A stretch of DNA of 64,000 nt from a virus. Lineage: Duplodnaviria; Heunggongvirae; Uroviricota; Caudoviricetes. The notes beneath the pieces are model-generated. The model had not been told where the DNA came from. It ran no database searches and saw only the letters and a list, made by a program, of their open reading frames with translations. Position 1 is the first letter of the stretch; each line of letters starts with the position of its first letter. Positions 1,909-60,447 of the stretch are shown here, in pieces. The stretch lies in the IMG/VR virus record IMGVR_UViG_3300010162_000009. One strand, given 5' to 3'. A program made the position numbers and the translations under genes.

Positions 1909-1916
1909 ATAAATAG
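1909..1916 (-). promoter_or_regulatory. Conserved phage promoter-like motif (plus strand ATAAATAG, sense strand CTATTTAT) upstream of 1061-1891.
   Basis: Motif instance 1 of about 18; see findings. Confidence 0.5.
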
Positions 1917-2070
1917 AAATATTTTATTTTAAATTATTTTACAAAATGATTTTCCGCATAACCCTCTTCTTTGACATCTAATATGATTTTAAATGGAATT
2001 AGAATGGAAATAGACATGTAATTATTGAAATATCAAAAAAAAAATTATATTTAAATAAAATGGTTAGTAG

Positions 2071-3552
2071 ATGGGTAAAAAAATAACGACAGAAGACTGG
2101 ATAAAAAAAGCAAGTAAAGTTCATAATAACAAATATGACTACTCAAAAACTATATATACCAATGCCAGAGAAAAGGTTCACATAATATGTCCTGAACATG
2201 GTGAGTTTTTTCAAACACCAGACGCACATGCAAGAGGACAAGGTTGTCAAGCATGTGGAGGAAATAAACCGCTAACAAGAGAAGTTTGGATTGAAAGAGC
2301 AAAAATAGTTCATGGTGATAGATACGATTATTCAAAAGTTGAATATGTTAATTATGATAAAAAGGTTTGTATAATCTGTCCCATTCACGGGGAATTTTGG
2401 CAAACAGGAAATAGTCATTTGAAAGGGTTTAATTGCCCAAAATGTTATGGTAGAAATAGAACAACAGATGAATGGATTGAAAAAGCAAAACAGATTCATG
2501 GTGATAAATATGATTATTCAAAATCAGAGTATATTGTTCTTCAAGAAAGGGTGTGTATTATTTGCCCAATACATGGGAAATTTTGGCAAACACCAGCAAA
2601 CCACTTAAGAAAAAGGGGATGTCCAAAATGTATAGGAAAAAATAAAACAACCGAAGAACTTATTGAAGAAATGAGAGAAATTCATGGTGATAAGTATGAT
2701 TATTCAAAGGTTGAGTATACTTCTGCTATAACAAAAGTTTGTATAATCTGTTATAAACATGGGGAATTTCAGCAAACACCAAATAAACATTTGGGGTGGA
2801 AGGGATGTCCAAAATGTGTGGGAAAAAACAAAACAACAGAAGAGTGGATCAAAGAAGTAAAACAAGTTCATGGTAATAGATATGATTATTCAAAAGTCAA
2901 ATATATTGATAGTATAAAAAAAGTTTGTATAATTTGTTCAGAACACGGTGAGTTTTGGCAAACACCTCTGAACCATTTTAACAGCAACGGTTGTGCGAAA
3001 TGTGTTGGAAAAAATAAAACAACCGATGAATGGATTAAACAAGTAAAACAAGTCCACAACAATAGATATGATTATTCAAAATCTATATATACTAACGCTA
3101 AAGAGAAGGTGTGTATAATATGTCCTGAACATGGGGAATTTTATCAAATCGCATTCAGTCACTCAAATGGGAGTAAATGTCCCAAATGTATTTCCTCTAA
3201 AATGGAAGATAGTGTGTCTGAATTTTTAAACAAACATAGTATTTTATATGAAAAAAAATATCGCGGTTTTGCTTGGTTAAAATATAAACAACGTTTAGAA
3301 TTAGATTTTTATATCCCATCATATAATATTGGTATTGAATGTCAGGGTCAACAACATTTTATTTCTATTAATTATTTTGGGGGGCAAGATGGTTTTGAAA
3401 AAACAAAAATTCGTGATAAAATAAAAAAACGATTGTGTGAAAAACATAATATTCCACTATTCTATATTAATTATAATGACAATATTGAAGATAAACTTAA
3501 TACTTTATTTTTCAAAAGCAAACACATAAAAATAGACAACACCTATTTATAA
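2071..3552 (+). CDS. Zinc-ribbon repeat protein. Six ~68-aa repeats ([12 protein letters not shown]...[23 protein letters not shown]) plus a C-terminal PD-(D/E)XK/Vsr-like nuclease-like domain (ELDFY...IECQGQQHF). Paralog of 20244-21266.
   Basis: Internal repeats visible in the translation. CxxC and H-G-E motifs. The C-terminal E-x-D...E-C/H-Q-G-x-Q-H motif is shared with 20244-21266. Confidence 0.6.
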   Translation: MGKKITTEDWIKKASKVHNNKYDYSKTIYTNAREKVHIICPEHGEFFQTPDAHARGQGCQACGGNKPLTREVWIERAKIVHGDRYDYSKVEYVNYDKKVCIICPIHGEFWQTGNSHLKGFNCPKCYGRNRTTDEWIEKAKQIHGDKYDYSKSEYIVLQERVCIICPIHGKFWQTPANHLRKRGCPKCIGKNKTTEELIEEMREIHGDKYDYSKVEYTSAITKVCIICYKHGEFQQTPNKHLGWKGCPKCVGKNKTTEEWIKEVKQVHGNRYDYSKVKYIDSIKKVCIICSEHGEFWQTPLNHFNSNGCAKCVGKNKTTDEWIKQVKQVHNNRYDYSKSIYTNAKEKVCIICPEHGEFYQIAFSHSNGSKCPKCISSKMEDSVSEFLNKHSILYEKKYRGFAWLKYKQRLELDFYIPSYNIGIECQGQQHFISINYFGGQDGFEKTKIRDKIKKRLCEKHNIPLFYINYNDNIEDKLNTLFFKSKHIKIDNTYL

Positions 3553-3576
3553 TATATATTATAACCGTATTCAACA

Positions 3577-5523
3577 ATGGCAAAAAAACAGGATAAACCC
3601 ATAAGCATATATCAAGCACTGATTAAAACGTTAACAGGGTGGGATAATGGAGAATATAATACGACTGTTCAATCAAATCGTCAACGTGTCTATAATTATA
3701 ATGATGATATTATTATTAGAACAAAGGATAAGAACGAATATGAATCTGCACTCATACAAGCAAAACAAGATAAATTTTTGAGTTCAGCATGGGTACACGC
3801 ACATGCAAGTACTAACATGTTGGATATGAAGAGTATATCCTATGTAGATTTAATGATGCGGGACTGTGAAAACATGTCCCAAAGACCGGAAATTTATCAA
3901 GCATTAAACATTATGGCATCGGAAACATGTAGTCTTGGAGGCGACGGTTCCTTAATCAACATAACATCCAAATCAGAAAGAATAAAATTCATACTTGAAG
4001 ATCTTTTTGTAAACAGACTTCAAATACACTTAGAATTATTTCCATTAGTCCGTACCATGTTGAAGTACGGTAATGAATATAAATTGTTAAACATTCAAGC
4101 AAAGAATGGGATTCTTGGATGGCATTCAATACCAGTAGTACAAATGAGAAGATTCCAAAGTTTACATCCTTACGGAATTATGCCGAGAACAACTGGTGAA
4201 CAAGCAAATGATATGACACAACTTCAACCACATTTTGAATTTCTTGGGGCAGGTGCACCACAATCTTTTCATAATTGGCAAGTTGCGCATTTTAGATTAA
4301 TGAATGATATGATATGCCAACCTTATGGATGTAGCGCAATTAATGGTGCTAGACAACAGTGGCGTAGACTCATGATGGCAGAAGATCATATGCTTATACA
4401 CATGGCGGATCGTGCATATGAACGATTGATATTTAAAATCGACGTTGGTTTAATTGATGATGCTGACGTTGAAGCATACGTACAGGAAATTGCAAACCGA
4501 TTTAAAAGGACACAGAGAATAGACCCACAAACTGGACAACTTGATTTGTCTAAGAATCATATGAGTCCCTTAGATGATTTCTTCATTCCGGTTAGGGGTA
4601 ATAACGATGCAAGTAAGATAGAAACACTTGCTGGTAGTTCAGCATTTGATAAATTCAAGGATATGTTAGAATATCTTCACTTACAAATGCTCACCGCATT
4701 AGGTGTCCCCAAAGTATTTTTGAATTTTGAAGCATCTCCAGCAGAAGGTAGAACATTATCAATGACCGACATAAGATTCGCTAAACTCATCAATCGTTTT
4801 CAACAGTGTGTAATATTAGAGTTAAATAAGATTGCAATTATTCATCTATATCTATTAGGATTTGAAGACGATTTAAATAATTTTACAATAACGATGAATA
4901 ATCCTTCAACTCAAGTTGAAATTATGAGAGTTGAAGAAATGCAGAAGAAAATGCTTGCTGTTAGAGATGGTCTAACAAATACGGATGCCGGTCTACCAAT
5001 ATATTCATGGAAAAAGGCGTTGAAAGAAATTATGAAATTTTCAGATGCTGAAATTAATCAAATATTGGAAGATATGCGTTTTGAAAAAGCGGTATCAACA
5101 GAATTGTCATTAACACAACAAATTATTAAGAAAACAGGAATATTTGATAAAGTTGATACATTATATGGTGAACCAAATTCAGAATATGATTATTCAGTTA
5201 CTGAAATAGGTCAAGCCGAAGCGGCGGCCGGTGGCGGTGGCGGCGGTGGAGGTGGTGGCATGGGCGGCGACATGGGTATGGGCGACATGGGTGGTGGCGA
5301 AGAAGGTGAAGCCGGAGCAGAAGAAGGTGGTGCGCCAGTAGAAGGTAGTGGAGAAGCACCTGCACCAGAAACCGGAAATACGGAAGGTGCGCCGATGGAA
5401 AATAAAAGGAGAAGAAAAGAAAATATTATTACAGAAAATAGATTTCCTATAAACGAGGAATTTGAGAATTTGATAGTAAAAATGGATGAGTATTTGAAAA
5501 GTAAAGATGATTTTCCCCAATAA
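3577..5523 (+). CDS. Portal vertex protein, T4 gp20-like, with a C-terminal poly-Gly and acidic extension.
   Basis: Segments IETLAGSSAFDKFKDMLEYLHLQMLTALGVP and MTDIRFAKLINRFQQ resemble the conserved gp20 core as I recall it. 648 aa. The GC-rich stretch 5215-5400 encodes GGGGGGGGGGMGGDMGMGDMGGGEEGE. Confidence 0.6.
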   Translation: MAKKQDKPISIYQALIKTLTGWDNGEYNTTVQSNRQRVYNYNDDIIIRTKDKNEYESALIQAKQDKFLSSAWVHAHASTNMLDMKSISYVDLMMRDCENMSQRPEIYQALNIMASETCSLGGDGSLINITSKSERIKFILEDLFVNRLQIHLELFPLVRTMLKYGNEYKLLNIQAKNGILGWHSIPVVQMRRFQSLHPYGIMPRTTGEQANDMTQLQPHFEFLGAGAPQSFHNWQVAHFRLMNDMICQPYGCSAINGARQQWRRLMMAEDHMLIHMADRAYERLIFKIDVGLIDDADVEAYVQEIANRFKRTQRIDPQTGQLDLSKNHMSPLDDFFIPVRGNNDASKIETLAGSSAFDKFKDMLEYLHLQMLTALGVPKVFLNFEASPAEGRTLSMTDIRFAKLINRFQQCVILELNKIAIIHLYLLGFEDDLNNFTITMNNPSTQVEIMRVEEMQKKMLAVRDGLTNTDAGLPIYSWKKALKEIMKFSDAEINQILEDMRFEKAVSTELSLTQQIIKKTGIFDKVDTLYGEPNSEYDYSVTEIGQAEAAAGGGGGGGGGGMGGDMGMGDMGGGEEGEAGAEEGGAPVEGSGEAPAPETGNTEGAPMENKRRRKENIITENRFPINEEFENLIVKMDEYLKSKDDFPQ

Positions 5524-5598: not shown

Positions 5599-5606
5599 CT
5601 ATTTAT
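5599..5606 (+). promoter_or_regulatory. Orphan CTATTTAT motif in the 430-bp intergenic region after the portal gene; no CDS within 170 bp.
   Basis: Exact motif on the plus strand. It is followed by a GC-rich structured element at 5843-5886. Confidence 0.3.
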
Positions 5607-5842
5607 ATTAGAATAAAAAAAGTGATGTTAGTTTTGAATACATATACGTCGGGTTTACCCAAATTTCATCTTAATGAGCAACCAGAGGATAATATACCAT
5701 TGGGAGTGATTTCTATGTAATTTTTGTACATCCACACATCATAATATCAAACTCCCATTGAAATAATCTTTGGGGGTTTTTTGTTTTTTTATACGTTCTT
5801 TGACATGGTGGTTAAAAAATATGTCGCGTTGGACAAGAGGTA

Positions 5843-5886
5843 AGTCACCGCGCTTTCACCGCGGAGTGAGGGGATCGTTACCCCTA
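5843..5886 (+). other. Pair of GC-rich stem-loops (tcaCCGCG-ctttcac-CGCGGagtga and AGGGG-atcgtta-CCCCT). Candidate structured RNA or terminator.
   Basis: Inverted repeats read directly from the sequence. Local GC is far above the window average. Confidence 0.3.
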
Positions 5887-5953
5887 CGCGATACTATGAT
5901 CAGAAAATTTTCTATTTCTTATTTTTGTGGTATATTTTTAAAAAAAATTTAAT

Positions 5954-6415
5954 ATGAAAAACGGTTTTATCACGCTTCAATTTCATGCACAGGATCTCGA
6001 ATCATATTCAAATATGAGTCTAATAGACTTTTATAATATGAAGGAGAATGAGAGGAAATCTCAGTATGCTGCTGAAAAGTCGATTAAAGATGCAAAACTT
6101 AAAGTTATTAATGATATGGTTGGAAAAATATTTCTAATCAATTTCAATGATAATTCTTACAGGGTTTTTGTGCACGACACACCATTAAAAGTGTATTCTG
6201 ATACAGTGAACACAAAAACCCCGATAATCTGTATAATGAAGAATAAGAGTGTTTATTTCGATAGTTATACATACGTTCAATCGGAATGGTTGGTTGGAAT
6301 GAATGTCAAATCATGTGTTGAAATAACTAAAAAAGAACGTGACGTGATAGTTAAACAAATTGAAAAAATTTCATTAGATGTTTCAAACATAATTATCAAG
6401 AATACTGTTATATAG
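5954..6415 (+). CDS. Hypothetical protein, 153 aa.
   Basis: ORF track; tight spacing with the next gene. Confidence 0.5.
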   Translation: MKNGFITLQFHAQDLESYSNMSLIDFYNMKENERKSQYAAEKSIKDAKLKVINDMVGKIFLINFNDNSYRVFVHDTPLKVYSDTVNTKTPIICIMKNKSVYFDSYTYVQSEWLVGMNVKSCVEITKKERDVIVKQIEKISLDVSNIIIKNTVI

Positions 6416-6459
6416 GTTTTAGATTAACATCTATATATCTTTATAATAACTACAAAATT

Positions 6460-6846
6460 ATGATCTTTAACAAGGAATTGATTAGGATATTTAAAACATT
6501 TAATGAAAATTTGAAACTGTGTACATATAATGATATGCTTAATGTTCAAAGCAGCCGGTTAGTGATTAAAGAACATAGAGATTTACGTATTATTACAATA
6601 TACGCTGCACAAGAAAATATAGGAAGGGAAGTAACTTTAAAAGAGTGTATTGAGATACTATCAAAATTCAATGAGGAGTCTATTATACAGACAATGGACT
6701 TCAGTAGAGCAGTTTTGTGTTGTGAAAATATTACATTCAAAGAAAGTGGTGATAAATTGATAATGAAGGCAAATGGAATACAACAACGGTATTTGTGTAG
6801 TTGTGGTAGAACATCACCTTCTTTAGATTTTGAGGATGAAGAATAA
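6460..6846 (+). CDS. Hypothetical protein, 128 aa.
   Basis: ORF track; its stop lies 2 nt before tRNA-Asp. Confidence 0.5.
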   Translation: MIFNKELIRIFKTFNENLKLCTYNDMLNVQSSRLVIKEHRDLRIITIYAAQENIGREVTLKECIEILSKFNEESIIQTMDFSRAVLCCENITFKESGDKLIMKANGIQQRYLCSCGRTSPSLDFEDEE

Positions 6847-6848
6847 TT

Positions 6849-6921
6849 GGTGCGTTGGTGTAGTGGTTAACATATCTGCTTGTCACGCAGGGGATCATGG
6901 GTTCGAATCCCATACGCACCG
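6849..6921 (+). tRNA. tRNA-Asp (anticodon GTC).
   Basis: Cloverleaf folded by hand. Acceptor ggtgcgt/acgcacc; T-arm atggg-ttcgaat-cccat; anticodon loop ttGTCac. Confidence 0.8.
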
Positions 6922-6924
6922 CAT

Positions 6925-6998
6925 CGGAGAGTAGCTCAGTGGGAGAGCAATAGATGGTCAAAGTCTATGTGACGAAAGTTCGATTCTTTCTTCTCCGA
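6925..6998 (+). tRNA. tRNA with a non-canonical anticodon arm. Simplest fold gives a 6-bp stem atagat/gtctat and loop ggTCAaa, i.e. anticodon TCA (UGA-reading, suppressor-like). Identity uncertain.
   Basis: Good acceptor stem (cggagag/ttctccg), D-arm (tagctcagtgggagagc) and T-arm (gaaag-ttcgatt-ctttc). U33 is replaced by G in the proposed loop. Confidence 0.55.
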
Positions 6999-7004
6999 CA
7001 AAAT

Positions 7005-7076
7005 GGTAATGGTGGTGTAGTGGTAGCATGTCAGATTGTGGATCTGTTGGGTTTGGTTCGAGTCCAAACATTACCC
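7005..7076 (+). tRNA. tRNA-His (anticodon GTG).
   Basis: Acceptor ggtaatg/cattacc with discriminator C; anticodon loop ttGTGga; T-arm tttgg-ttcgagt-ccaaa. Confidence 0.75.
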
Positions 7077-7109
7077 AAAAAATTGTATATTTAATAAAAT
7101 TTAAATAAT

Positions 7110-7289
7110 ATGAAACAATGTCATGGTACATGCGATTGTCTAGAAGAGAAAACAGTACCCGTTGAAATAAGAAAGGAACCTGATGTAGAAGAGATAGGTT
7201 GGTTTTGCAAACAACTTGGGGTTTGGTTTATAGAACCAAAAGCATGGGGAATCTGTATGGATCCCGATGACATGGGTAGTTGTTTTTAA
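7110..7289 (+). CDS. Small Cys-rich protein (59 aa, MKQCHGTCDCLEEK...CMDPDDMGSCF) embedded in the tRNA cluster.
   Basis: Manual ORF between tRNA-His and tRNA-Asn; below the track threshold. Confidence 0.3.
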   Translation: MKQCHGTCDCLEEKTVPVEIRKEPDVEEIGWFCKQLGVWFIEPKAWGICMDPDDMGSCF

Positions 7290-7296
7290 TCAATAT

Positions 7297-7368
7297 TGGA
7301 ATATAGTTCAGCGGTAGAACACCTGACCGTTAATCAGGGAGTCGTAGGTTCAAATCCTACTATTCCAG
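7297..7368 (+). tRNA. tRNA-Asn (anticodon GTT; C at position 33).
   Basis: Acceptor tggaata/tattcca; D-arm gttc-agcggta-gaac; anticodon stem cctga/tcagg with loop ccGTTaa; T-arm gtagg-ttcaaat-cctac. Confidence 0.7.
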
Positions 7369-7374
7369 CTCATT

Positions 7375-7917
7375 ATGAAGTATATAATTGTAATATTATT
7401 ATGTTTTTGTGTTGAATGTTTTGGACAAACAAGACGTTCACCACAAAGAAATATTAGAAGACAGAATACCCAAACGTGTTTTGTGGAGTTTGGTGGACCA
7501 GGTCAAGGGTTTACATTCAATTTCGATACACGTATTTTAGGTGAGGGGGATTTTGGTCCAGGATTTCGTATAGGTGCAGGGGTTGGTTTCGATGGTGAAT
7601 TGTTCGATGAACCGGGTATAGGTATGTTTGCTGTTATTCCGGTTGGGGTAGATTGGGTTTTTGGTTTTAAAAATAATTATTTTGACATAGGATCCAGAAT
7701 ATTATTCTATTCCAGATTACCATATCATTTTTATAATACAGGTAATATCGCTAATACAAAATATCCAAACGATAAAATGATATTAATAATTGGAGGAAAC
7801 TATAATCCGGATCCTATTGGAAGTAGGTATTTTTTGAAAATAGGTGGGGGAGTATCAATGTCGAGGAATAGAATTCTTCCGTATATGAACTTCGGAATGG
7901 GATTCGTAATAAAATAA
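7375..7917 (+). CDS. Secreted Gly-rich beta-strand protein with a signal peptide, possibly outer-membrane beta-barrel-like; 180 aa.
   Basis: N-terminal signal MKYIIVILLCFCVECFGQ; alternating hydrophobic and Gly-rich pattern. Lies between tRNA-Asn and tRNA-Pro. Confidence 0.5.
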   Translation: MKYIIVILLCFCVECFGQTRRSPQRNIRRQNTQTCFVEFGGPGQGFTFNFDTRILGEGDFGPGFRIGAGVGFDGELFDEPGIGMFAVIPVGVDWVFGFKNNYFDIGSRILFYSRLPYHFYNTGNIANTKYPNDKMILIIGGNYNPDPIGSRYFLKIGGGVSMSRNRILPYMNFGMGFVIK

Positions 7918-7927
7918 AATTTTAAAT

Positions 7928-7999
7928 ATGGGTGTGGTCCAGTGGTAGGGCGGTAGGTTTGGGACCTACAAATCGTGGATTCGATTTCCACCACCCATA
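7928..7999 (+). tRNA. tRNA-Pro (anticodon TGG).
   Basis: Acceptor atgggtg/cacccat; anticodon stem gtagg/cctac with loop ttTGGga; T-arm gtgga-ttcgatt-tccac. Confidence 0.8.
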
Positions 8000-8029
8000 C
8001 GAATAAGTGGTTTATTTCCACAAACTAAT

Positions 8030-8111
8030 GCGGTTGTGGCGGAATTGGTAGACGCACCAGATTTAGGATCTGGTTCCGAAAGGAGTGGGAGTTCGAGTCT
8101 CTTCATCCGTA
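8030..8111 (+). tRNA. tRNA-Leu (anticodon TAG), type II with a long variable arm.
   Basis: D-arm tggcggaattggtagacgc as in bacterial tRNA-Leu. Anticodon stem ccaga/tctgg with loop ttTAGga. Variable arm tccgaaaggagtggg. One acceptor-stem mismatch. Confidence 0.7.
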
Positions 8112-8117
8112 CAAAAA

Positions 8118-8229: not shown

Positions 8230-8706
8230 TTATTCATTACATTTAATGTTCATTTTATCTCTTAGTTCTACACGATATTGTAGTATATCACCTTCTACAT
8301 TAAGTTCTGTCTTTACGGAGTGTGGACCATAACTATTTATATGATTATAATTATTAATCCTGATAAGTGCCATACGACCACTATTATCTAGACCAAAACG
8401 CCCATTTATATCAACACAGTCTCCACCAACTATCCCTTCTTCATTCGGTTCTATGTTAGTATCTATTTGTTGATTAATTGGTGATTGAAAATGTTCTCCA
8501 ATATATTCTGCATCAGCGCAATCAGGGGTTGAATGTGTATGACCACCACTTTTAGTTCCTCTACCACGCCCATCACCATCACCAATAGCGTTTGGGTGAT
8601 TAACGTCATACTCTTCATTATTTTTATATTCATTTTTTTTCAACAATGTTGGTCTATGTTCTAAAGCAATGTTTTCAAGACAAGTTTGACCATTAATTAG
8701 TGCCAT
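8230..8706 (-). CDS. Hypothetical protein, 158 aa.
   Basis: ORF track; ATAAATAG 30 bp upstream. Confidence 0.55.
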   Translation of the reverse strand: MALINGQTCLENIALEHRPTLLKKNEYKNNEEYDVNHPNAIGDGDGRGRGTKSGGHTHSTPDCADAEYIGEHFQSPINQQIDTNIEPNEEGIVGGDCVDINGRFGLDNSGRMALIRINNYNHINSYGPHSVKTELNVEGDILQYRVELRDKMNIKCNE

Positions 8707-8736: not shown

Positions 8737-8744
8737 ATAAATAG
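8737..8744 (-). promoter_or_regulatory. ATAAATAG promoter-like motif upstream of 8230-8706.
   Basis: Exact motif. Confidence 0.45.
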
Positions 8745-19548: not shown

Positions 19549-19675
19549 TGTCAGACAAAACTGTCATTATGTCATATCAAATGGTAATTATGTCAGAAAT
19601 AGTGGGTTATAATACTATTGGCATAGTGTTTGAAGAATAGTCAGCAAATAATATTTTAAATAAATTTTTAATAAA

Positions 19676-20219: not shown

Positions 20220-20227
20220 CTATTTAT
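20220..20227 (+). promoter_or_regulatory. CTATTTAT promoter-like motif 17 bp upstream of 20244-21266.
   Basis: Exact motif on the plus strand. Confidence 0.45.
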
Positions 20228-25177: not shown

Positions 25178-25185
25178 ATAAATAG
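25178..25185 (-). promoter_or_regulatory. ATAAATAG motif upstream of 23328-25145.
   Basis: Exact motif. Confidence 0.45.
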
Positions 25186-25192: not shown

Positions 25193-25567
25193 TTACAATA
25201 AATAGTTTTTTAAGTACTGTTCTACTATTGGTCGAATAATATTTTGTTTTATTTCTTCTTCATTTATACTAATACTATAAGGTGGCATCTTTCTTACATG
25301 ACTCGATGCTTTACCAAAAGCAGGGGCATCATATGTTGCAGATCCACTTCCACCACCAAATGCTGCACCACCACCTCCACTGAAACCAGCAGCACCTTCA
25401 TTTTCTTCTAATGCTGTTTCAGAATTAACACATGCTTTCGCGTCATCTATACTTGATAAATTTTCAGATATTAGACCTATATTAGGTTTTAAAACATCAA
25501 ATGTCCCTTCTTTGGTTTCCCTTATCTTGTAACCCTTATAAGAATATTTCTTTATGTAATTACTCAT
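25193..25567 (-). CDS. [10 protein letters not shown]-family protein with a Gly-rich low-complexity middle, 124 aa; paralog of truncated 1-673.
   Basis: N-terminal [28 protein letters not shown] matches the 1-673 product. Confidence 0.5.
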   Translation of the reverse strand: MSNYIKKYSYKGYKIRETKEGTFDVLKPNIGLISENLSSIDDAKACVNSETALEENEGAAGFSGGGGAAFGGGSGSATYDAPAFGKASSHVRKMPPYSISINEEEIKQNIIRPIVEQYLKNYLL

Positions 25568-25583: not shown

Positions 25584-25591
25584 TATAAATA
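25584..25591 (-). promoter_or_regulatory. ATAAATAG motif upstream of 25193-25567.
   Basis: Exact motif. Confidence 0.45.
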
Positions 25592-25622
25592 GAAATTTGT
25601 AATTATTTACTATCACAATTAA

Positions 25623-28774: not shown

Positions 28775-28782
28775 ATAAATAG
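28775..28782 (-). promoter_or_regulatory. ATAAATAG motif upstream of fibre gene 25623-28742.
   Basis: Exact motif; divergent promoter region. Confidence 0.5.
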
Positions 28783-28799: not shown

Positions 28800-28807
28800 C
28801 TATTTAT
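28800..28807 (+). promoter_or_regulatory. CTATTTAT motif 17 bp upstream of 28824-29534, preceded by TATATTTG (Bacteroidota -7-like).
   Basis: Exact motif on the plus strand. Confidence 0.45.
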
Positions 28808-30996: not shown

Positions 30997-31004
30997 ATAA
31001 ATAG
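30997..31004 (-). promoter_or_regulatory. ATAAATAG motif upstream of small ORF 30827-30980.
   Basis: Exact motif. Confidence 0.4.
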
Positions 31005-32129: not shown

Positions 32130-32137
32130 ATAAATAG
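32130..32137 (-). promoter_or_regulatory. ATAAATAG motif upstream of 31596-32087.
   Basis: Exact motif, 43 bp upstream. Confidence 0.4.
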
Positions 32138-33905: not shown

Positions 33906-33913
33906 ATAAATAG
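33906..33913 (-). promoter_or_regulatory. ATAAATAG motif upstream of 33379-33894.
   Basis: Exact motif. Confidence 0.45.
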
Positions 33914-35184: not shown

Positions 35185-35290
35185 CGAGAAGTTACCACTC
35201 GTTATTCTTTCAATTTATGCAATTGGTTATGTTTTGTGGATTTCTTTGTTGTGTGTATATTTAGGGTAGAAAAATTTTAAAAATAATATC

Positions 35291-39433: not shown

Positions 39434-39441
39434 TATAAATA
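39434..39441 (-). promoter_or_regulatory. ATAAATAG motif upstream of 38347-39417.
   Basis: Exact motif. Confidence 0.45.
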
Positions 39442-39464
39442 GTAGAACAAAACCTATGCCAAAC

Positions 39465-39986: not shown

Positions 39987-40042
39987 AATTTTGTATATGT
40001 TAAATTTGTTAAAAAATTAAAATGATTGTCATTTTATATACA

Positions 40043-40050
40043 TAAATAGT
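40043..40050 (-). promoter_or_regulatory. ATAAATAG motif 57 bp upstream of 39465-39986.
   Basis: Exact motif. Confidence 0.35.
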
Positions 40051-41251: not shown

Positions 41252-41331
41252 ATTATGTCCTGATTAAATAATCAACTATCTGATTTATAATAATATTTAT
41301 ATTTTATTCTGTCCAAATTCTGTCCTGATTC

Positions 41332-43234: not shown

Positions 43235-46200
43235 CTATTGAGAATCATTTCCTAAATAAATAGCACCATCCTTATCTACCGTAAATCCTGGTCCTAACTT
43301 AATCTTAATGGAATCACCTAAAGCTAACACTGGAAGAGAGATGGTGAAAATATCAAGGGTGGTACCGCTACTTCGTGGCATATATAACTTTCCATTGTAA
43401 ATTTGACTTGTGTTTCGAGTTATATTTGCAGGAATTGTTGTCGTGCGAGTAGTTTCTGTTACCAAATCAAAAATCTCAAGGGTGGCACCACCACCACTTT
43501 GTGGCATATATAACTTTCCGTTGAAAATTTGACACGTAAAACGCTGCATATGTGTAGGAAGTGTTACCGTGCGAGTGGTTTCTTCTTCCAAATCAAAAAT
43601 ATCAAGTGCGCTGCCACTATGTTGTGGCATATATAACTTTCCGTTGAAAATCTGACTTATCCATCGCTGCCTACTTGCAGGAAGCGTTATCGCACGACCA
43701 GTTTCCGTCACCAAATCAAAAATCTCAATGGTGGCACCACCACCACCTTGTAGCATATATAACTTTCCGTTGAAAATCTGACTTGTGTATCGCCACATAT
43801 TTGTAGGAAGTGTTACCGTGCGAGTAGTCTCTGTTACCAAATCAAAAATCTCAAGGGTGGTACCACCAGTTCCTGGTATATATAACTTTTCGTTGAAAAT
43901 TTGACTTGTGTCTCGTTCCATATCTGTAGGAAGCGTTACCGTGCGAGTTGTTTCCCTAACCAAATCAAAAATCTCAAGGGTGGTACCACCAGTTCCTGGT
44001 ATATATAACTTTTCGTTGAAAATTTGACTTGTTTTTCTACCCATATTGGGAACTGTTACCGTGCGAGTGGTTTCAGTTACCAAATCAAAAATATCAAGGG
44101 TAGTATTCCAATCACTTGGTATATATAACTTTCCGTTGAAAATTTGACTTGTTTGTCTCTGCATATTTGTAGGAAGTGTTACCGTGCGAGTAGTTTCTTC
44201 TCCATTGGTAATTTTAATATTTGGATAAGCAGGAAACCTTATTTCATTATTAACTTTTTCAACCTCTTGTCCACCAAGCATAATTTTCGGAATATCAGGA
44301 TATACCGGAAGGATAAACTCATTACCAACCTTCTCTACCGGAATACCTAAATCAAAAATCTCAAGAGCGGTACCACCATCTTGCGGCATATATAACTTTC
44401 CGTTGAAAAATTGACATGTAGCCTTCCATACAGATGTAGAAAGTGTTGCTGTGTATTCTTCTTCTGTTACCAAATCAAAAATCTCAAGGATATTACCACC
44501 ATCTGGTATATATAACTTTCCGTCGAAAATATGACTTGTTTGTCGTCCCATGTTTGTAGGAAGTTCTACCATGCGAGTAGTCTCTGACACCAAATCAAAA
44601 ATCTCAAGGGCGGTGCCATTATGTTGTGGTAGATATAACTTTCCGTTGAAAATCTGACTTGTTTGTCTCTGCATATTTGTAGGAAGTGTTACCGTGCGAG
44701 TGGTTTCCGCTATCAAATCAAAAATCTCAAGGGTATTACTACCATCTCGTGGCATATATAACTTTCCGTTGAAAATTTGACTTGTTCTTCGCCACATATT
44801 TGTAGGAAGTGTTACCGTGCGAGTAGTCTCTGTTACCAAATCAAAAATCTCAAGGGTGGTACCACTATATTGTGGTAGATATAACTTTCCGTTGAAAATC
44901 TGACTTGTTTGTCTCTGCATATTTGTAGGAAGTGTTACCGTGCGAGTAGTTTCAGTTACCAAATCAAAAATTTCGAGAGTGGTACCATTATCTCGTGGCA
45001 TATATAACTTTCTGTTGAAAATTTGGTTTGTTATTCGCCCCATACTTGTAGGAAGTGTAACCGTGCGAGTGGTTTCTGTAACCAAATCAAAAATCTCAAG
45101 GGTGGTATTCCAATTCCCAGACATATATAAATTTCCGTTGAAAATTTGACTAGTACGTCTCTGCATATTTGTAGGAAGTGTTACCGGGCGACCAGTTTCT
45201 GTACCAATTTTTACAGATGTATAAGGTGGAAATACTAATTTATCTCCTATCTTTTTTACATTATTTCCTACAATGTTAAAAATTTCAAGGTTTTTCCCAA
45301 AATTTTCTGGTATATATATTTTCTCATCGAAAATTTGAATTATACTTCGTTGCATGTTTCTAGAAAATCTTACCACGTGAGTAGTTTCTGTTACCAAATC
45401 AAAGATCTCGAGGATGGAATTCCCTGCCATATATAACTTTCCCTTGTAGATTTGACTTCCAGGACGATTCATGTTTGTAGGAAGTGTTACCGTGCGAGTA
45501 GTTTCTGTTACCAAATCAAAGATCTCGAGGGTTGTACCTTGCTCCTGTGGTATATATAACTTATCATCATAAATTTGACTTGTGTATCGCAGCATATCTG
45601 TAGGTAGTTCTACTGTTCGCATTTCTTCAGTGGTTAAATCAAATATTTCCATAGTTGTATAACCAGAACTTGGTATATATAATTTACCATCGTATAGTTG
45701 CCCAGTATATCTCAACACATCTGTTGGAAGGGTAATATATCGCGTTTCCTCGGTATTTAAATCAACAACTTCAAGTTTCACACCAGAACTTTCCGGTATA
45801 TATAACTTTTCGTTATATAAAAAACTTGTTAGTTTATTTGTCATCATGTCACTCAAACTAGGGAGTCCAATCATACTCACTTCTTCAGTTTTTAAATCAA
45901 ATACTTCAATCATTTGGTACATAACTGAAGGTATATATAACTTATCATTATAAATATGACTTGTAAGTCTTCCTATAGTTCCATTAAGATCTACTGTTCG
46001 CATTGTTTTAGAACTTAAATCAAATATTTCGAGAACAACACTACATAGTAAATATAATTTACCATTGTAAATTTGACTACCCAATCTCTGAAATTCAGTA
46101 GGAAGTTCTATTGTTTCTATTATTTCTATACTTTCTTCTCCAATACTAGCGAATTGTACTGCCGTGTCAATTTTCTCTAATTTTGCTTCATCTATTTCCG

Positions 46201-51850: not shown

Positions 51851-51858
51851 ATAAATAG
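51851..51858 (-). promoter_or_regulatory. ATAAATAG motif upstream of the protease-fibre operon.
   Basis: Exact motif. Confidence 0.5.
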
Positions 51859-52689: not shown

Positions 52690-52697
52690 CTATTTAT
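52690..52697 (+). promoter_or_regulatory. CTATTTAT motif 21 bp upstream of 52718-54622.
   Basis: Exact motif on the plus strand. Confidence 0.45.
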
Positions 52698-52717: not shown

Positions 52718-54622
52718 ATGTGTAATATGAAAAAGTTTTTTTTATTAAGTTTAGTGGTTTTAGTGATTTCTTTCATGGGTTGTAAACCGGAAGAGTTTCC
52801 TGAGATTATTTATGAAGACTCTGTTGTTTTATTAGACGGAGCATTGATTCTAAACAACGCACCTGTTGATGTAATGGTAACTCGAAAAAACCAGTTGATA
52901 GGTAGTAGATTAAAAGGTATGGTTGCAACCGCCAATGAATACAGGTGGAAATTGGTTGCTGAAATGGGTACATTAGCGGTAGTTGATGACCGAGATAGGA
53001 GCGGTAGAACAGTTAGAAACGCACAAGCAACTCACGTAAAGTTTTCCAGTGGAAATGGACAGGGTTCAGTGTTTGTGTCGTATAATAATAAAGGTACACC
53101 AAATATTGGTGGAGTTGTTATCTTTGATTATTTTGTAAAAGAAGGATCTATTGAATCGGTTAGCGTTGATTTAGACGCAACAAGTGTTCTTAGAATGCCC
53201 AGAGCACAAATCAATGCTGTGGATTACGACCCTGTAATGAATAGATTGTATATGGTTGGTGCCAATGAAGACACACGCACAGGATACAAAGGAGACGCAA
53301 ACCTATCATTTGTTATGGTTATGGATTTGGATCCGGGCACAGGAAAATTCATGTTGAAAGATCCTGTGTTTATGAAACAACTCACATCGTATCAAGCAAC
53401 CTCTGTTAAAAAGTTCGGTGATAAAGTATATGTTACTGTTGGTGACGGTACAAAAAGTACTCAAGGCGGTTTATATATATTTAATGAATCGGACAACTTT
53501 AAACAAGTCGGTCAAATATTGAGATTAGAACATGCAAGAAGCGTTGACGTTGATGAATCAGGCATCTATGTTTTCCAAGCAAATTCAAGTAAGGTTACAA
53601 GATATAATTTAGACGGAAGTGGTGGAACAGTAATATTCTTTGATTCAGAGAGGGCATTACAAAAAGACGCAAAGAGCGAATTACTTGTTTGGAAAGATCT
53701 TGTATTTGTTACCGAAAACGAAGCGGGTATGACCATGTTGGATAAATCCAATGGAAGAGTATTACTTCAATTGGAAAGACCAGGTGACTGTCCTGAAAAT
53801 GAGGTTATGAATAGTATTTCGATTAACTCTGATAAGAAGAGAGCAGCAAGTGGTGAATTAGTTCAATCAGATTTACTGTTAATTGCCAGCGGACAATCAG
53901 GAATGATATGGTACGACATAGTAAAAGATGAAACAGGTCAAACAAGGTTGATGGTGAAAGGTGTTAATAGTATTCTTGAAAACGAAAACAGCGTTAACTA
54001 TGTTGAATCTCGTGGAAACATCGCATTTGTTGCTGACGGTTTAGGTGGGTTGAGAGTATTATATCTGTTGGGTAAAGAAAGTGATGATAATATTTGTCCT
54101 GACGGTACAAAATTCTATACGTTCTTAAAAGACAACGGTAACGACCACGGTAATCCATATACAAGAAAGGTAGGTGATGTATTTGTTCAAGCAGAAGGTG
54201 ATAATTTGGTTGTGTATATTTTCAGTATTGCGCAATTACCAGATGGTTTCGTATATGTTGATGCTGACGGAGTTGCAAATCCAAACGTAAAAACCGTTGA
54301 TTTGAAATACGCAGGTGTTATGTTCGGACCAAGTCTGAAACACTTTGAAGATATTAACCTGTTAAGAGGTAATGGAAATATGAACAACGGTGTTATGAAC
54401 AATTATAACTATCAATATCGTGAATATATTCCTGGTGGCGTTAAATTTACATTCCCAATGGATAGCGAAGCACTTAAAAATGGAACAAATTTAATGGTTG
54501 TTTATAGCGGAAACGGAGCATGGGGTTATGGCGACCCTAACGGTCCAAGCGGTTCCACAGGAACAGGAGCACACAACAACGGACAAATTATTACACTTGG
54601 CGACATTGTTTATTGTCAATGA
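52718..54622 (+). CDS. Large lipoprotein (lipobox SFMGC), 634 aa, beta-rich; candidate virion or surface protein.
   Basis: Signal peptide plus Cys; Gly-rich C-terminus; late-type promoter motif. Confidence 0.55.
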   Translation: MCNMKKFFLLSLVVLVISFMGCKPEEFPEIIYEDSVVLLDGALILNNAPVDVMVTRKNQLIGSRLKGMVATANEYRWKLVAEMGTLAVVDDRDRSGRTVRNAQATHVKFSSGNGQGSVFVSYNNKGTPNIGGVVIFDYFVKEGSIESVSVDLDATSVLRMPRAQINAVDYDPVMNRLYMVGANEDTRTGYKGDANLSFVMVMDLDPGTGKFMLKDPVFMKQLTSYQATSVKKFGDKVYVTVGDGTKSTQGGLYIFNESDNFKQVGQILRLEHARSVDVDESGIYVFQANSSKVTRYNLDGSGGTVIFFDSERALQKDAKSELLVWKDLVFVTENEAGMTMLDKSNGRVLLQLERPGDCPENEVMNSISINSDKKRAASGELVQSDLLLIASGQSGMIWYDIVKDETGQTRLMVKGVNSILENENSVNYVESRGNIAFVADGLGGLRVLYLLGKESDDNICPDGTKFYTFLKDNGNDHGNPYTRKVGDVFVQAEGDNLVVYIFSIAQLPDGFVYVDADGVANPNVKTVDLKYAGVMFGPSLKHFEDINLLRGNGNMNNGVMNNYNYQYREYIPGGVKFTFPMDSEALKNGTNLMVVYSGNGAWGYGDPNGPSGSTGTGAHNNGQIITLGDIVYCQ

Positions 54623-54644
54623 TAGCGTTTAATACAAAAATTAG

Positions 54645-54676
54645 AACCACAGATTTTCCTCTGTGGTTTTTTTTAT
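54645..54676 (+). terminator. Rho-independent terminator (aaccacag-attttcct-ctgtggtt followed by a T8 run).
   Basis: Perfect 8-bp stem followed by a T-run. Confidence 0.7.
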
Positions 54677-55648: not shown

Positions 55649-55649
55649 C

Positions 55650-56174: not shown

Positions 56175-57569
56175 TTATTTTTTCTTGCGGTAGTTTCTGA
56201 TTGTTTTTTGAATTTTGTCTTGAGCAGCCGCTTCGTTTAATGAAGCACCACCAACCGCTTTTTTAGGTGAATACTCCCATAACCTTTTCATATTATCAAA
56301 ACTATTTTTTAGTTTTTCTGGGTTTTTATATTCAAGTATAAAAGATTGATTGTAGTTATCGCACTCCATTAAATATTCGTTACCTGCTTTGTCAACCATA
56401 ACAAACTTATTACCGGGTGTTTTATATTGTTCTGGAATTAAACTTTTAACATGATTTTCATTAAGGAAAACTGTTTTGTTAAATTTTAAACGTTTTATTT
56501 TGTTTTCATTTTTCTTTTCATCTCCGATACCAAGAGTATCATTAACTTTATCACCAACAGCGTCACCAACCTTTTGACCTGCTGCTGTTGAAGCGGTCAT
56601 AGCAGCGTTTGTTCCAGCGTCTACGGCGACTTGTTTTGCTATATCTTTACAACTTTGTGTACCTGCGGTTTTCGCAGCACTACCAGCGGCTGTCTTACCA
56701 GCAGTTCTTGCAGCAGTACCAGCCGCCGCTTTACCTGCTGCCGCCCTACCAGCTGCGCCAACTACCGCACCAATGACTTCATTAACTTCTTCATTGACTT
56801 CACCTTCCGCTTCGCCTTTATTTTTATTCCTATTCATTAATGCCGATGCACCTATACCAGCGGCATTAACCGCGATAGGTATAAGAGGAACAACTTCATT
56901 AAGTAACTGTGAATTCCCCCTAACCATTTTATTTTCATTCACCACCTTTTTGAATGTTGGTACCGCCAAAGAGTATTTTTTACCACTTTCGTCTACAAAA
57001 TTAATTCGAGTTTTATCCTCATTTAATCCTACAACTGTAAGTTTAATATTATTCTTTGATTCTACAAAGACATCACCTTTTTTCACTTTACTTTCGTCTG
57101 TTGAGAATTTAGGGGTTTTGGTTTGCTGTGTAATCCTAGTGTTTATTTGTGTAGTTCCCATAATATTTGCATATCCTTTATTATCATTTTGCATTTTATC
57201 CCAGAAACCTTTGTTTCCTTTTATAGAAATACCACCAGATGTTTCATCATCAATATCCGGTTGGTCTGGTGAAGATTTACCTTGAACAAGTGCTTTTACC
57301 CTATCTTGATATTTCTTGTCAATAGAATCATAATTTAAGTTCAATGCGTTTCTTCCATAGGGTTGGTTTTCTCCCCTGTAACCTTTGATTTCAGTAGAAT
57401 TACCTTCAGGAGTAGAATCTTTTATACGTTCTTCACCATCCTTCTTAGCATCTTTACTATCATTTTCATTTTCTGATCTAATATTAGTAAAAAGTTTTCC
57501 GTTTGTTGAATCACTTTCTGCTGCTTCATTAATCAGTTTTCCTAACTCTGCTAAATTTACCATAGCCAT
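56175..57569 (-). CDS. Gly/Ala-rich protein, 464 aa; permuted paralog of 23328-25145; candidate virion-internal protein.
   Basis: Shared segments with 23328-25145; ATAAATAG 30 bp upstream. Confidence 0.55.
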   Translation of the reverse strand: MAMVNLAELGKLINEAAESDSTNGKLFTNIRSENENDSKDAKKDGEERIKDSTPEGNSTEIKGYRGENQPYGRNALNLNYDSIDKKYQDRVKALVQGKSSPDQPDIDDETSGGISIKGNKGFWDKMQNDNKGYANIMGTTQINTRITQQTKTPKFSTDESKVKKGDVFVESKNNIKLTVVGLNEDKTRINFVDESGKKYSLAVPTFKKVVNENKMVRGNSQLLNEVVPLIPIAVNAAGIGASALMNRNKNKGEAEGEVNEEVNEVIGAVVGAAGRAAAGKAAAGTAARTAGKTAAGSAAKTAGTQSCKDIAKQVAVDAGTNAAMTASTAAGQKVGDAVGDKVNDTLGIGDEKKNENKIKRLKFNKTVFLNENHVKSLIPEQYKTPGNKFVMVDKAGNEYLMECDNYNQSFILEYKNPEKLKNSFDNMKRLWEYSPKKAVGGASLNEAAAQDKIQKTIRNYRKKK

Positions 57570-57598: not shown

Positions 57599-57606
57599 AT
57601 AAATAG
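57599..57606 (-). promoter_or_regulatory. ATAAATAG motif upstream of 56175-57569.
   Basis: Exact motif. Confidence 0.45.
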
Positions 57607-57694: not shown

Positions 57695-57983
57695 TTAGGG
57701 ATTTTCATCATCATCCTCTTCGTCGTCTTCGATATCAACGTCGAATACAATTTCGTCGCTCAGAATTACTGGGCTGCTACAAGCAACTACTAAAACCTCT
57801 TTCGTGGTTGTACCACAACGGTTAGTCAGTTTGAACACGCATGGAAATTCTCCATATTCGGTAGGTTCTCCATACAACTCACCAGTTGCCGTATCTAATT
57901 GCACACCTGCGGGTAGCGGTCCTTCAACCAGTTCCCATAAACCGGTTGACCCTTTGTAAAGTATCTGTTTCCTTTCTTCCATC
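57695..57983 (-). CDS. Small Ig-like (BIG/He_PIG-type) domain protein with an acidic tail.
   Basis: LPAGVQLDTATGELYGEPTE motif. The track start at 58021 is a TTG that abuts the promoter motif, so the start was moved to the ATG at 57983 (MEERKQ). Confidence 0.45.
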
Positions 57984-58023
57984 TTACTTATTTTTTTTAT
58001 TACGTTATTATTTAATTCCAATA

Positions 58024-58031
58024 ATAAATAG
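58024..58031 (-). promoter_or_regulatory. ATAAATAG motif upstream of 57695-57983.
   Basis: Exact motif. Confidence 0.4.
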
Positions 58032-58084
58032 TAAAAAATTTTTCATAAATTACCTTATTACTAAAAAAATTAAAAATATTTTTT

Positions 58085-60421
58085 CTACATTTTTCTAATT
58101 GGTATTCTGAACACTAAATGAGTTCCGTATCCAAGTTCAGATTGAACAGTAATAGAACCACCCAACATTTCAACAATTTGTTTTGTGATATAAAGTCCCA
58201 TTCCTGTTCCACCATATCTAATTCTATCCTGTGCATTGATTTGATTAAACCTATCAAAGATAATCTTCAATTTATCTTCAGGGATACCAATACCAGTGTC
58301 TTCAACGGTGAACACTAACATATCAGATTCTATTTCATATCCAAATTTAACATATCCGCTTTCAGTAAATTTCACTGCATTTCCGATAACATTATTCAGA
58401 ATTTGACGTACCCTTGTAACATCTGAATCAATGATACATGGATAGATTGAATTGGAAGTATCAAACACGACTTCTAATCTCTTATCCTTGGTTTTGATAA
58501 AACTATTAAATGATAGTTCCATTTCCTGTAAAATGATATTAATATCAAATTCTGTATGATTTATTGAAAGACTATTGGATTCTATTTTAGCAACGTCTAC
58601 AATATCATTAATCAATTGTAAAAGTTGTTGTGTGCTGCTCCTGACAATCCTTGAATATTCCTTACGCGTTTCCGGATCAATATGGTTTGAATCAATGAAG
58701 TCAAGGAAACCAAGAATACCGTTCATAGGTGTACGTATCTCATGCGACATGTTAGTGAGGAATGAAGATTTCAATTGATTTGCTTCCTCAGCTTTCATTC
58801 TTGCTTTTATCAAATGATTTGTTTGTTCAGTAACCCTGTCTTCCAAACTATCCTTCAACTTGATAAGTTCATCATTCAAATTAAGTAATTTCTTGTTTGT
58901 GTTTCTAATCATGAATAGAAGGAACAATACTATTACAACTGCAATGACAACTATATAGATAATATATTTTCGATATAATAGTTCTTGCTTTTGTGCTGCT
59001 ATTTGCGCTCTCGCTTCAAATAGACTTTGTTCAAAAGTATATTGTGCCGTTACTTGTTGAATATTAAACTTCTCTGTTTCTGTTTTTATTGAATCATTAA
59101 TGGCGTATGCTTGTCTAAGATATTTTATGGCAACAGAGTATTTAGATTTTTCAAAATTAATATCTGATAATATATGTAGAATTTCAGATTTCTTCTGTTT
59201 TAATCCCCTACCTGTTATCAAATCCAAAGCGGTAGTAAAAATTCTATCAGCATCATTCAATTCACTTTTTGAAAAGTAATAATTTCCAAGATAGTAATAC
59301 GCATCAATCAAGTGTATAACAGAATTTGATGCGCGAGCATATTCAATAGCATTTTTATAATATCTTAATTTATCTCTATCGTAGTTACTTCTCAACCCAA
59401 GATTAATATAAATTGTTGATAGTGCAGATGATTTAGGATTATTTTCTTCATATACCCTTATCAATTCATTTAATATTTTAACTACATCACTGTTATTTTT
59501 ATAATATCCTGATATCGCAAGATTGTGCATTACCCTTGCATATTGTAAATTTTCACCAAGAGTTTTGTATATTTCAGCAGACTTGTTATAATATTTATAA
59601 ACACTATCAATCTCACCAAGACCCTTATAAACACTACCGATTAAATCATATATATCTGCTTCGTTGTGTCTATCACCAATCATTTTTGAATGTTCAACCG
59701 CTTTTTCAGCACTTTCAATAGCGTGTTGTGTGTCACTTATGTACGTTAGTATTATCAATGAAATTTTATATCCCGCAATAATATTTTCAGTATTACCAAT
59801 TTCTTCCCATATCAAAATTGCTCTTCTTATCGCTTCAAAAGATTCATATAAACGACCCTGATAACGATAAACAAGTGATAAATTGTAATAATTACGAGCA
59901 AGACATTCCATCTCACCAAGTTTCATACATATATTTATTGAAGCATTAAACATTTCTATCGCCTCATTGTATTCACCTTTCAAATAGTGAATCGTACCGG
60001 TTGTTCTATACAAATCAGAAATACCCCTTTCAAAATTTATAACGTATGCAAGAGTTAATCCGCGTTGAAGAACATCCATCGCCTCAGAATATCTGCGTTC
60101 TACAATTAATTTACGTGCCGAATCACCAGACGCAATTACACGCATCTCATCCTCTGTATCCGTTGGTCTCGATATATTTTCATTAGACTTATTAATAAGA
60201 GGGAAAATAGAAATACCCCTATCCTTACTGATAATATAACCAACAGTAGAACCAACCCGGTCAGTATATTTAATGGCACTATATTCGTTTTGTTCAATTT
60301 GATTATTACTTAAACTACTATAATCTAATAGAACATCTAATTCACTATTAGATTGTGATATCGCAGGTAATAGATTGAACAATACTAATATAACTACCAA
60401 AACTATGTGTTTTTTTGTCAT
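58085..60421 (-). CDS. Sensor histidine kinase with an N-terminal signal peptide, TPR-repeat sensor region, one TM segment, HisKA and HATPase_c domains; no receiver domain.
   Basis: MSHEIRTPMNGI H-box; N/G1/G2 boxes (NAVKFT, DTGIGI, GGTGMGL); TPR-like repeats in the N-terminal 460 aa; ATAAATAG 19 bp upstream. Confidence 0.85.
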   Translation of the reverse strand: MTKKHIVLVVILVLFNLLPAISQSNSELDVLLDYSSLSNNQIEQNEYSAIKYTDRVGSTVGYIISKDRGISIFPLINKSNENISRPTDTEDEMRVIASGDSARKLIVERRYSEAMDVLQRGLTLAYVINFERGISDLYRTTGTIHYLKGEYNEAIEMFNASINICMKLGEMECLARNYYNLSLVYRYQGRLYESFEAIRRAILIWEEIGNTENIIAGYKISLIILTYISDTQHAIESAEKAVEHSKMIGDRHNEADIYDLIGSVYKGLGEIDSVYKYYNKSAEIYKTLGENLQYARVMHNLAISGYYKNNSDVVKILNELIRVYEENNPKSSALSTIYINLGLRSNYDRDKLRYYKNAIEYARASNSVIHLIDAYYYLGNYYFSKSELNDADRIFTTALDLITGRGLKQKKSEILHILSDINFEKSKYSVAIKYLRQAYAINDSIKTETEKFNIQQVTAQYTFEQSLFEARAQIAAQKQELLYRKYIIYIVVIAVVIVLFLLFMIRNTNKKLLNLNDELIKLKDSLEDRVTEQTNHLIKARMKAEEANQLKSSFLTNMSHEIRTPMNGILGFLDFIDSNHIDPETRKEYSRIVRSSTQQLLQLINDIVDVAKIESNSLSINHTEFDINIILQEMELSFNSFIKTKDKRLEVVFDTSNSIYPCIIDSDVTRVRQILNNVIGNAVKFTESGYVKFGYEIESDMLVFTVEDTGIGIPEDKLKIIFDRFNQINAQDRIRYGGTGMGLYITKQIVEMLGGSITVQSELGYGTHLVFRIPIRKM

Positions 60422-60439
60422 AATGTCGTTTTTTTTAAT

Positions 60440-60447
60440 ATAAATAG
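60440..60447 (-). promoter_or_regulatory. ATAAATAG motif upstream of the histidine kinase gene.
   Basis: Exact motif. Confidence 0.45.

Follow-up and report, generated by a model that had tools for sequence, protein, structure and literature searches.

Late transcription in bacteriophage T4, in which gp55, gp33 and the gp45 sliding clamp read the promoter box TATAAATA, is a textbook system, and T4-like cyanophages use the variant NATAAATA. Two further kinds of promoter enter the comparison made here. The multisubunit RNA polymerases of jumbo phages of the phiKZ/AR9 type use short A/T-rich promoters without a -35 element, and the housekeeping promoter of Bacteroidetes combines a -33 TTTG with a -7 TAnnTTTG, the latter lying at about -11 to -4 in Bacteroides and Flavobacterium. 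The T4 late promoter itself is an 8-bp TATA box placed about one helical turn before the transcription start, A/T-rich after the box and lacking a -35 element (PMC2988020); recognition by gp55 takes place on the non-template strand, with the bases at -12, -9 and -8 flipped into pockets (PMC7892883). Here we describe a strict box, CTATTTAT(A/T), in a 64,000-nucleotide stretch of DNA (hereafter the window) from a tailed phage, IMG/VR record IMGVR_UViG_3300010162_000009. On balance we judge it probable that this element is the -10-like box of the phage's late, virion-gene promoters.

Counted on both strands, the window holds 22 matches to CTATTTAT, against 6.78 +/- 2.65 in dinucleotide shuffles, none of 100 of which reached 22. 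Non-coding DNA makes up 6.4% of the window, yet it contains 18 of the 22 copies. With a simple gene set, 20 copies lie in sense orientation 11-55 nt before an ATG, most often at 16-18 nt, and the number rises to 21 when a 31-codon open reading frame (ORF) at 5625-5720 is admitted; the same small gene is also called on a metagenomic contig (L021). An unbiased scan of 8-mers in 70-nt sense-upstream regions returned CTATTTAT as its top word (19 of 22 occurrences upstream; binomial p ~1e-23). Away from gene starts the box is avoided in coding sequence, with one copy where about six are expected (Poisson P ~0.013). The match is also strict: one-mismatch variants precede a gene in 10 of 124 cases, about the background level, and ATATTTAT in none of 16.

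All the sites listed in the initial annotation are real, and the link that it drew between a promoter-like element and genes of the virion and late class holds. Its list overlooked four copies, at 3543(+), 8333(+), 25198(-) and 43256(-). Most of its coordinates are exact; 25584 and 39434 are the starts of TATAAATAG and not of ATAAATAG, and 40043 should read 40042. The copy at 5599, set down as an orphan, has a gene to serve in the 31-codon ORF that begins 18 nt after it. The plus-strand block at 8.7-23 kb, described as lacking the motif, contains the copy at 20220, before the homing endonuclease gene that precedes DnaK. The sole off-pattern copy, at 8333(+), may reflect chance, drive antisense transcription or act as a late promoter whose leader is long.

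The logo of 21 window sites consists of an invariant C-T-A-T-T-T-A-T, followed by W-W-W-N and then R-A-A, with A and T equally frequent at position 9 (10 of 21 each). A -35-like partner was not found, no upstream position exceeding 0.7 bits among the 21 window sites or among 345 sites from the related phages described below; the only upstream signal in the window logo is a weak preference for A/T 15 nt before the box. T-tracts and A-tracts are frequent upstream but vary in position, and were rejected as a second promoter element. We propose that RNA polymerase would read the box without any -35 element, that the A/T-only stretch downstream of it would open, and that the conserved purine some 5 nt past the box (R13 of C1-T-A-T-T-T-A-T8-W-W-W-N-R13-A-A) would be the transcription start. 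The resulting 5' leaders in the window would range from about 7 to 51 nt and most often measure 12-14 nt.

Strong intrinsic terminators, each a hairpin with a T-run, precede the copies at 57599 and 60440 by 30-80 nt. The former copy stands 34 nt after the terminator at 57665-57640, and its unit closes at a second one (56155-56127); the latter stands about 80 nt after the terminator at 60562-60529, which has a 15-bp stem. Because these terminators come just before the boxes, the genes downstream need a transcription start of their own. Several genes form box-gene-terminator cassettes, and the boxes at 28775 and 28800 form a divergent pair separated by 17 bp within an imperfect palindrome. These contexts bear on the possibility of a role at the RNA level, in which the motif, transcribed as part of the 5' leader, would be a site of processing or of repressor binding, or would enhance translation. 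T4 offers precedents for sequence-specific control of mRNA in RegB and RegA, and a box found near start codons, in phages of a host group without Shine-Dalgarno sites, would suit such a role. However, upstream transcript would be scarce directly after a strong terminator, one pair of boxes is divergent, back to back, and the Rfam matches in the window are to tRNAs only. The distance to the ATG, moreover, falls from 11-55 nt here to 4-5 nt in many relatives, leaving no room for ribosome binding. Given the terminators nearby, the varying spacing and the leaderless genes set out below, we regard action in RNA as the weakest of the alternatives and as very improbable.

If the box is a promoter element, the genes that it serves point to a late class. 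They include those for the portal, prohead protease, tail tube and tail fibre, together with a homing endonuclease, a lipoprotein-like protein, a membrane protein and a histidine kinase. The window's genes for DHODH, DHFR, a phosphoribosyltransferase, Hsp20, DNA methylases and a primase-like protein have no box. The histidine kinase is an unusual cargo gene for a virion-gene promoter. Related HNH homing endonuclease genes of the DUF723 type, at 2071-3552 and 20244-21266 (+), directly precede portal and DnaK, respectively; a further HNH endonuclease gene (RRXRR/HNH domains) just outside the window (L006 2355-3698) has its own CTATTTAT box, like the gene at 20244. These boxed endonucleases are reminiscent of the late-expressed homing endonucleases of T4.

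Near-identical DNA was not found in the INPHARED phage collection. Genes identical to those of the window occur on two metagenomic contigs, ERZ27257297:k141_148294 (268,981 bp) and ERZ27257304:k141_684241 (180,245 bp), and the window therefore belongs to a jumbo phage with a genome of at least 269 kb. In its portal this phage shows 35-36% identity with three others: Microcystis phage Mel-JY01, Flavobacterium phage immuto and one uncultured phage of 484 kb. Shine-Dalgarno-like starts account for 1% of genes in the window and 4% in immuto, against 62% in T4; this low use, and the infection of Flavobacterium by the related immuto, indicate that the host of the window phage is probably a member of the Bacteroidota. 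The genes of Mel-JY01 use Shine-Dalgarno sites. We compared the window with the whole genome of immuto (160,410 bp), 188,853 of the 190,001 bp of Mel-JY01 and 80 IMG/VR loci retrieved by portal alignment (893 kb in total).

The core (A/G/C)TATTTAT(A/T) is the top upstream motif in immuto, in Mel-JY01 and in the 80 IMG/VR contigs. In immuto, CTATTTAT lies upstream of genes in 16 of 25 occurrences and ATATTTAT in 20 of 35, against 0 of 34 for TTATTTAT. The immuto sites, often directly after hairpin and T-run terminators, precede the genes for terminase, portal, the post-portal protein, sheath, tube, hub and tail spike as well as lysis genes. Almost all immuto genes share a strand, which also carries the box in 18 cases against 4. 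The sense-strand orientation of the box is secure, because in immuto it follows the gene strand and because the opposite reading would, in the co-directional gene runs of the window, produce antisense RNA only. In Mel-JY01, ATATTTAT precedes the portal gene, the next gene, the tube gene and others. Pooled over the 80 loci, the top upstream 8-mers are ATATTTAT (225/352, p ~1e-238), TATTTATA (208/349) and GTATTTAT (71/143), counts that include orthologous sites and measure conservation, not 345 independent events.

Two features of the clade set it apart from the window phage. At position 1 the upstream sites of the clade carry A in 228 cases, G in 71, C in 28 and T in 19, and none of the 80 loci has C alone; strict C is peculiar to the window phage. 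Counted from the last base of TATTTAT, the spacing to the ATG peaks sharply at 4-5 nt (69 of 345 sites); the sites concerned belong to terminase (about 25 loci), portal (about 20) and a dozen other genes. In these cases the protein N-termini are conserved right after the Met and the four spacer bases are variable. So short a gap before conserved N-termini means that the mRNAs would be leaderless, starting about 5 nt after the box; by implication the portal clade, though not the window phage, has conserved the use of leaderless late mRNAs.

What reads the box is the next question. We looked for gp55 in immuto, in Mel-JY01 and in the window with its flanks, using tblastn, a five-sequence hidden Markov model (HMM) and hhalign, and did not find it (best hhalign probability 4%). 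The same HMM detects a 41-residue gp55 fragment in an IMG/VR contig serving as a control (L001) in which, by the same pipeline, sense ATAAATA precedes five or six genes and TATTTAT none. Sixty-five hypothetical proteins of immuto gave no match to a sigma factor or gp55 in Pfam or PHROG, and the small proteins of the window's plus-strand block without an assigned function contain no sigma domains. Proteins common to immuto and Mel-JY01 were also considered as candidate readers, among them a Zn-ribbon and coiled-coil protein of 191/212 aa, a Zn-ribbon protein of 77/81 aa in the replication module and a 184-aa protein encoded after the clamp loader. None has a transcription-related Pfam or PHROG match, and they were rejected. 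The initial annotation had proposed a distinct phage sigma or activator specificity. A distinct specificity is plausible, with immuto and Mel-JY01 sharing the core without a detectable gp55; no sigma or activator emerged from the searches.

The window and immuto also contain promoters of another class, which bear on whether the host's housekeeping sigma factor might read the box. One, TTG-N19-TATATTTAG, lies in the window and matches a type found between 60 and 77 kb of immuto (L004 10957-26217), where about 17 small genes have a near-identical TTG-N19-TATATTTAGGTA upstream. The immuto copies read gTTGc-N19-TATATTTAGGTAtcaataattaaaa, and the class as a whole is described by TTG-N19-TATATTTAG(G). 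From their two-part shape, these are probably early promoters of host type. In the window, E. coli-type sigma-70 promoters show no excess over shuffles (114 vs 105; 108 vs 101), the Bacteroidetes-type TTG-N17-21-TAnnTTTG gives 14 matches with one upstream of a gene, and an ATTATGTCM motif near Hsp20 is not significant (5 vs 3.25). Short TGTCA/TGTCC repeats occur in the box-less intergenic regions 19549-19675 and 41252-41331, with ATTATGTCA present twice before Hsp20.

The box might then be a variant of the Bacteroidetes -7 element, read by the host sigma, perhaps with a phage activator and with no phage sigma involved. A start at position 13 would place TATTTATW at about -11 to -4, with T, A and two T's in common with the -7 element, and the immuto late variant ATATTTAT has seven bases in common with the early -7 box of the same phage, TATATTTAGG. 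The probable Bacteroidota host, and searches of immuto and Mel-JY01 that found no phage sigma, fit this view as well. Against it, the -33 TTG partner is absent, though the early promoters of immuto have one, TAT(A/T) stands where the conserved TTTG end of the host element would be, and TAnnTTTG itself is not enriched upstream of starts in the window (8 of 136 occurrences). Strict C versus A at position 1 varies among related phages, which is hard to reconcile with one conserved sigma, and the same core appears in Mel-JY01, a Shine-Dalgarno user recorded on a cyanobacterium. We therefore consider reading by the host sigma unlikely.

A promoter for a phage-encoded RNA polymerase, either single-subunit or of the split multisubunit kind found in jumbo phages, seems more improbable still. 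In its favour, the phage is a jumbo phage whose genome lies mostly outside the sequence inspected, its relatives yielded no sigma, and the box, with its few, almost invariant bases drawn from A and T only, is of a kind often seen in promoters of dedicated polymerases. Yet immuto, at 160 kb, shares the box and is annotated without an RNA polymerase except for a small 'subunit N' label; at the level of sequence, its largest unassigned proteins have no polymerase domain, and there is no polymerase-like protein in the window or its flanks.

We favour instead a -10-like late promoter whose reader would most probably be the host core RNA polymerase with a phage-specified factor other than a recognisable T4 gp55. 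A core common to phages of different recorded host phyla, combined with a position 1 that varies by lineage, favours a phage-specified reader, and the pattern at position 1 (C only here, mostly A or G elsewhere) looks like co-evolution with such a phage-encoded protein. More tentatively, and at somewhat less than even odds in our estimation, a large, T4-like and mostly uncultured clade, living probably on Bacteroidota, may conduct its late transcription through a factor unrelated, or unrecognisably related, to gp55. This factor would read a mirror image of the T4 box, possibly on the other strand or with re-shaped base pockets, and would often start leaderless mRNAs; the preference for the first base would have switched between lineages, with C alone in the jumbo phage.

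Several points weigh against these proposals, beyond the orthology within the pooled counts. Some boxed genes are not obviously 'late', such as the histidine kinase and the glycosyltransferase operon here and nrdF and GroES in immuto. Promoter function, the transcription start and the timing are all deduced from DNA sequence, and 'late', the term used in the initial annotation and borne out as an association with virion genes, derives from gene function. The search of the window phage covered 64 kb and about 13 kb of flanks in a genome of at least 269 kb, elsewhere in which a sigma or gp55 gene may lie, and in immuto and Mel-JY01 a factor that has diverged beyond the reach of sequence comparison would have escaped detection. 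The cyanobacterial host of Mel-JY01 is known from its record only.

Neither the box nor late promoters of these phages turned up in full-text literature searches, whose coverage is incomplete, so that a prior description is possible. Having a defined DNA target makes the late-gene switch of the clade a testable question, for which immuto and Flavobacterium sp. LMO8 form a cultivable phage-host pair within the clade. In metagenomic contigs of the clade the box could also guide annotation by pointing to late transcription units, to leaderless genes and to the correct start codons, and the change between C and A/G at position 1 provides a natural specificity pair for the study of promoter-factor co-evolution.

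Table 1. Copies of CTATTTAT and other features of the window, with the gene that follows each box and the distance from box to start codon.
Feature	Position	Strand	Spacing (nt)	Gene or context
Box copy	1909..1916	-	17	Gene 1061-1891 (276 aa)
Box copy	3543..3550	+	26	Portal 3577-5523; box in last codons of HNH endonuclease ORF 2071-3552
Box copy	5599..5606	+	18	31-codon ORF 5625-5720; box 214 nt before tRNA cluster 5823-8112
Box copy, sole off-pattern one	8333..8340	+		Antisense, within gene 8230-8706; plus-strand block (8770) begins 429 nt on
Box copy	8737..8744	-	30	Gene 8230-8706 (158 aa)
Box copy	20220..20227	+	16	HNH homing endonuclease 20244-21266 (phrog_559), then DnaK
Box copy	25178..25185	-	32	Gene 23328-25145 (605 aa)
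Box copy, second for the same gene	25198..25205	-	52	Gene 23328-25145; box within 3' end of ORF 25193-25567
Box copy	25585..25592	-	17	Gene 25193-25567 (124 aa)
Box copy	28775..28782	-	32	Tail-fibre gene 25623-28742; half of divergent pair
Box copy	28800..28807	+	16	Gene 28824-29534, then glycosyltransferase 29546-30622; other half of divergent pair
Box copy	30997..31004	-	16	Small gene 30810-30980 (56 aa)
Box copy	32130..32137	-	42	Tail tube gene 31596-32087
Box copy, shortest spacing in window	33906..33913	-	11	Gene 33379-33894 (171 aa)
Box copy	39435..39442	-	17	Gene 38347-39417 (356 aa, lipoprotein-like N-terminus MKKIITFLAIVVIGTACS)
Box copy	40042..40049	-	55	Gene 39465-39986 (173 aa)
Box copy	43256..43263	-	32	Membrane-protein gene 42651-43223; box inside last codons of 2256-aa ORF
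Box copy	51851..51858	-	18	Prohead protease 50021-51832
Box copy	52690..52697	+	20	Gene 52718-54622 (634 aa); unit ends at terminator 54643-54670
Box copy	57599..57606	-	29	Gene 56175-57569 (464 aa)
Box copy	58024..58031	-	41	Gene 57695-57982 (95 aa)
Box copy	60440..60447	-	18	TPR histidine kinase 58085-60421
Other promoter class, TTG-N19-TATATTTAG	35234..35264	+	26	Gene 35291-35971; matches immuto early-promoter type
Portal, T4-type	3577-5523	+		phrog_213, Portal_T4
tRNA cluster	5823-8112			Seven tRNAs
DnaK	21275-23239	+		HSP70 match
Tail fibre, 1039 aa	25623-28742	-		C-terminal Peptidase_S74 chaperone
Tail tube, gp19-type	31596-32087	-		Phage_T4_gp19, phrog_4542
Kelch-repeat protein, 2256 aa	43235-50005	-		Directly after prohead protease gene
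Prohead protease, gp21-type, intein-split	50021-51832	-		Peptidase_S77, Hint and LAGLIDADG; Peptidase_S77 match in two stretches
Histidine kinase, full-length	58085-60421	-		TPR, HisKA and HATPase

The window has a G+C content of about 32% and a coding density of about 94%, and a called gene is annotated by Pfam as thymidylate synthase. One of its tRNAs, at 6925-6999 (+), has a TCA anticodon; ARAGORN labels it SeC, Rfam scores it as a tRNA, and it is a potential opal suppressor. Opal recoding was rejected for the window, where TGA stops 20 of 88 genes. The TGA-ended genes lie mostly in the plus-strand, early-type block, and the TCA tRNA might have a role in other parts of the genome or at a certain stage of infection. 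Two adjacent plus-strand paralogues, 14297-14824 and 14821-15351 (175 and 176 aa), have the common N-terminus REGVFETNSSSVH and no Pfam match. The low-complexity ORF at 138-464 (+), with its S/G/A repeats, is probably not a genuine gene; a longer metagenomic contig has a 316-aa gene call on the other strand there (L021 11219-12169).

Set beside the systems with which we began, the box resembles the promoters of phiKZ and AR9 in being short, A/T-rich, free of a -35 element and carried by a jumbo phage. It differs from them in consensus, and no such polymerase genes were seen in the window or are annotated in immuto. With the Bacteroidetes promoter it has in common the probable host phylum, a TA-initial, T-rich box close to the start and genes without Shine-Dalgarno sites, but neither the -33 element nor the TTTG end, the latter replaced by TAT(A/T), is present. 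The early promoters of immuto keep the Bacteroidetes two-part architecture, and the one genome thus contains two distinct classes.

The closest likeness is to T4 late promoters. Both have a single A/T-only box of about 8 bp at -10, nearly invariant, with no -35 element and an A/T-rich segment leading to the start, and here the box precedes T4-like head and tail genes (gp20-, gp21- and gp19-like) and a homing endonuclease gene, which by function are of virion or late type. As the initial annotation had recognised, it is not the canonical T4 late box: neither TATAAATA nor NATAAATA takes its place on the sense strand of the window, and the 27 occurrences of TATAAATA comprise about 11 antisense readings of the box and a remainder that fits the chance expectation of 14, with no enrichment in sense orientation. 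Instead, (C)TATTTAT(A/T) stands on the sense strand, and (A/T)ATAAATA(G) is its reverse complement. The proposal of an inverted T4 box is compatible with this relation to TATAAATA(G), and a direct alignment fits too, in which TATTTATA and TATAAATA differ at two central bases only; in the same register, TATTTATA would keep A at two of the three positions flipped by gp55 (-12 and -8). The box departs from its T4 counterpart in that position 1 adds one more discriminating base, that gp55 was not detected in immuto and Mel-JY01, which share the box, and that in leaderless relatives with a spacing of 4-5 nt it would lie slightly closer to the start. The replisome of immuto, built on PolA and DnaB and not of T4 type, makes a clamp-coupled mechanism doubtful there. 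What appears to be new is thus a probable T4-style late promoter with a strict box of its own, differing from that of the textbook system and following a consensus that spans the clade.

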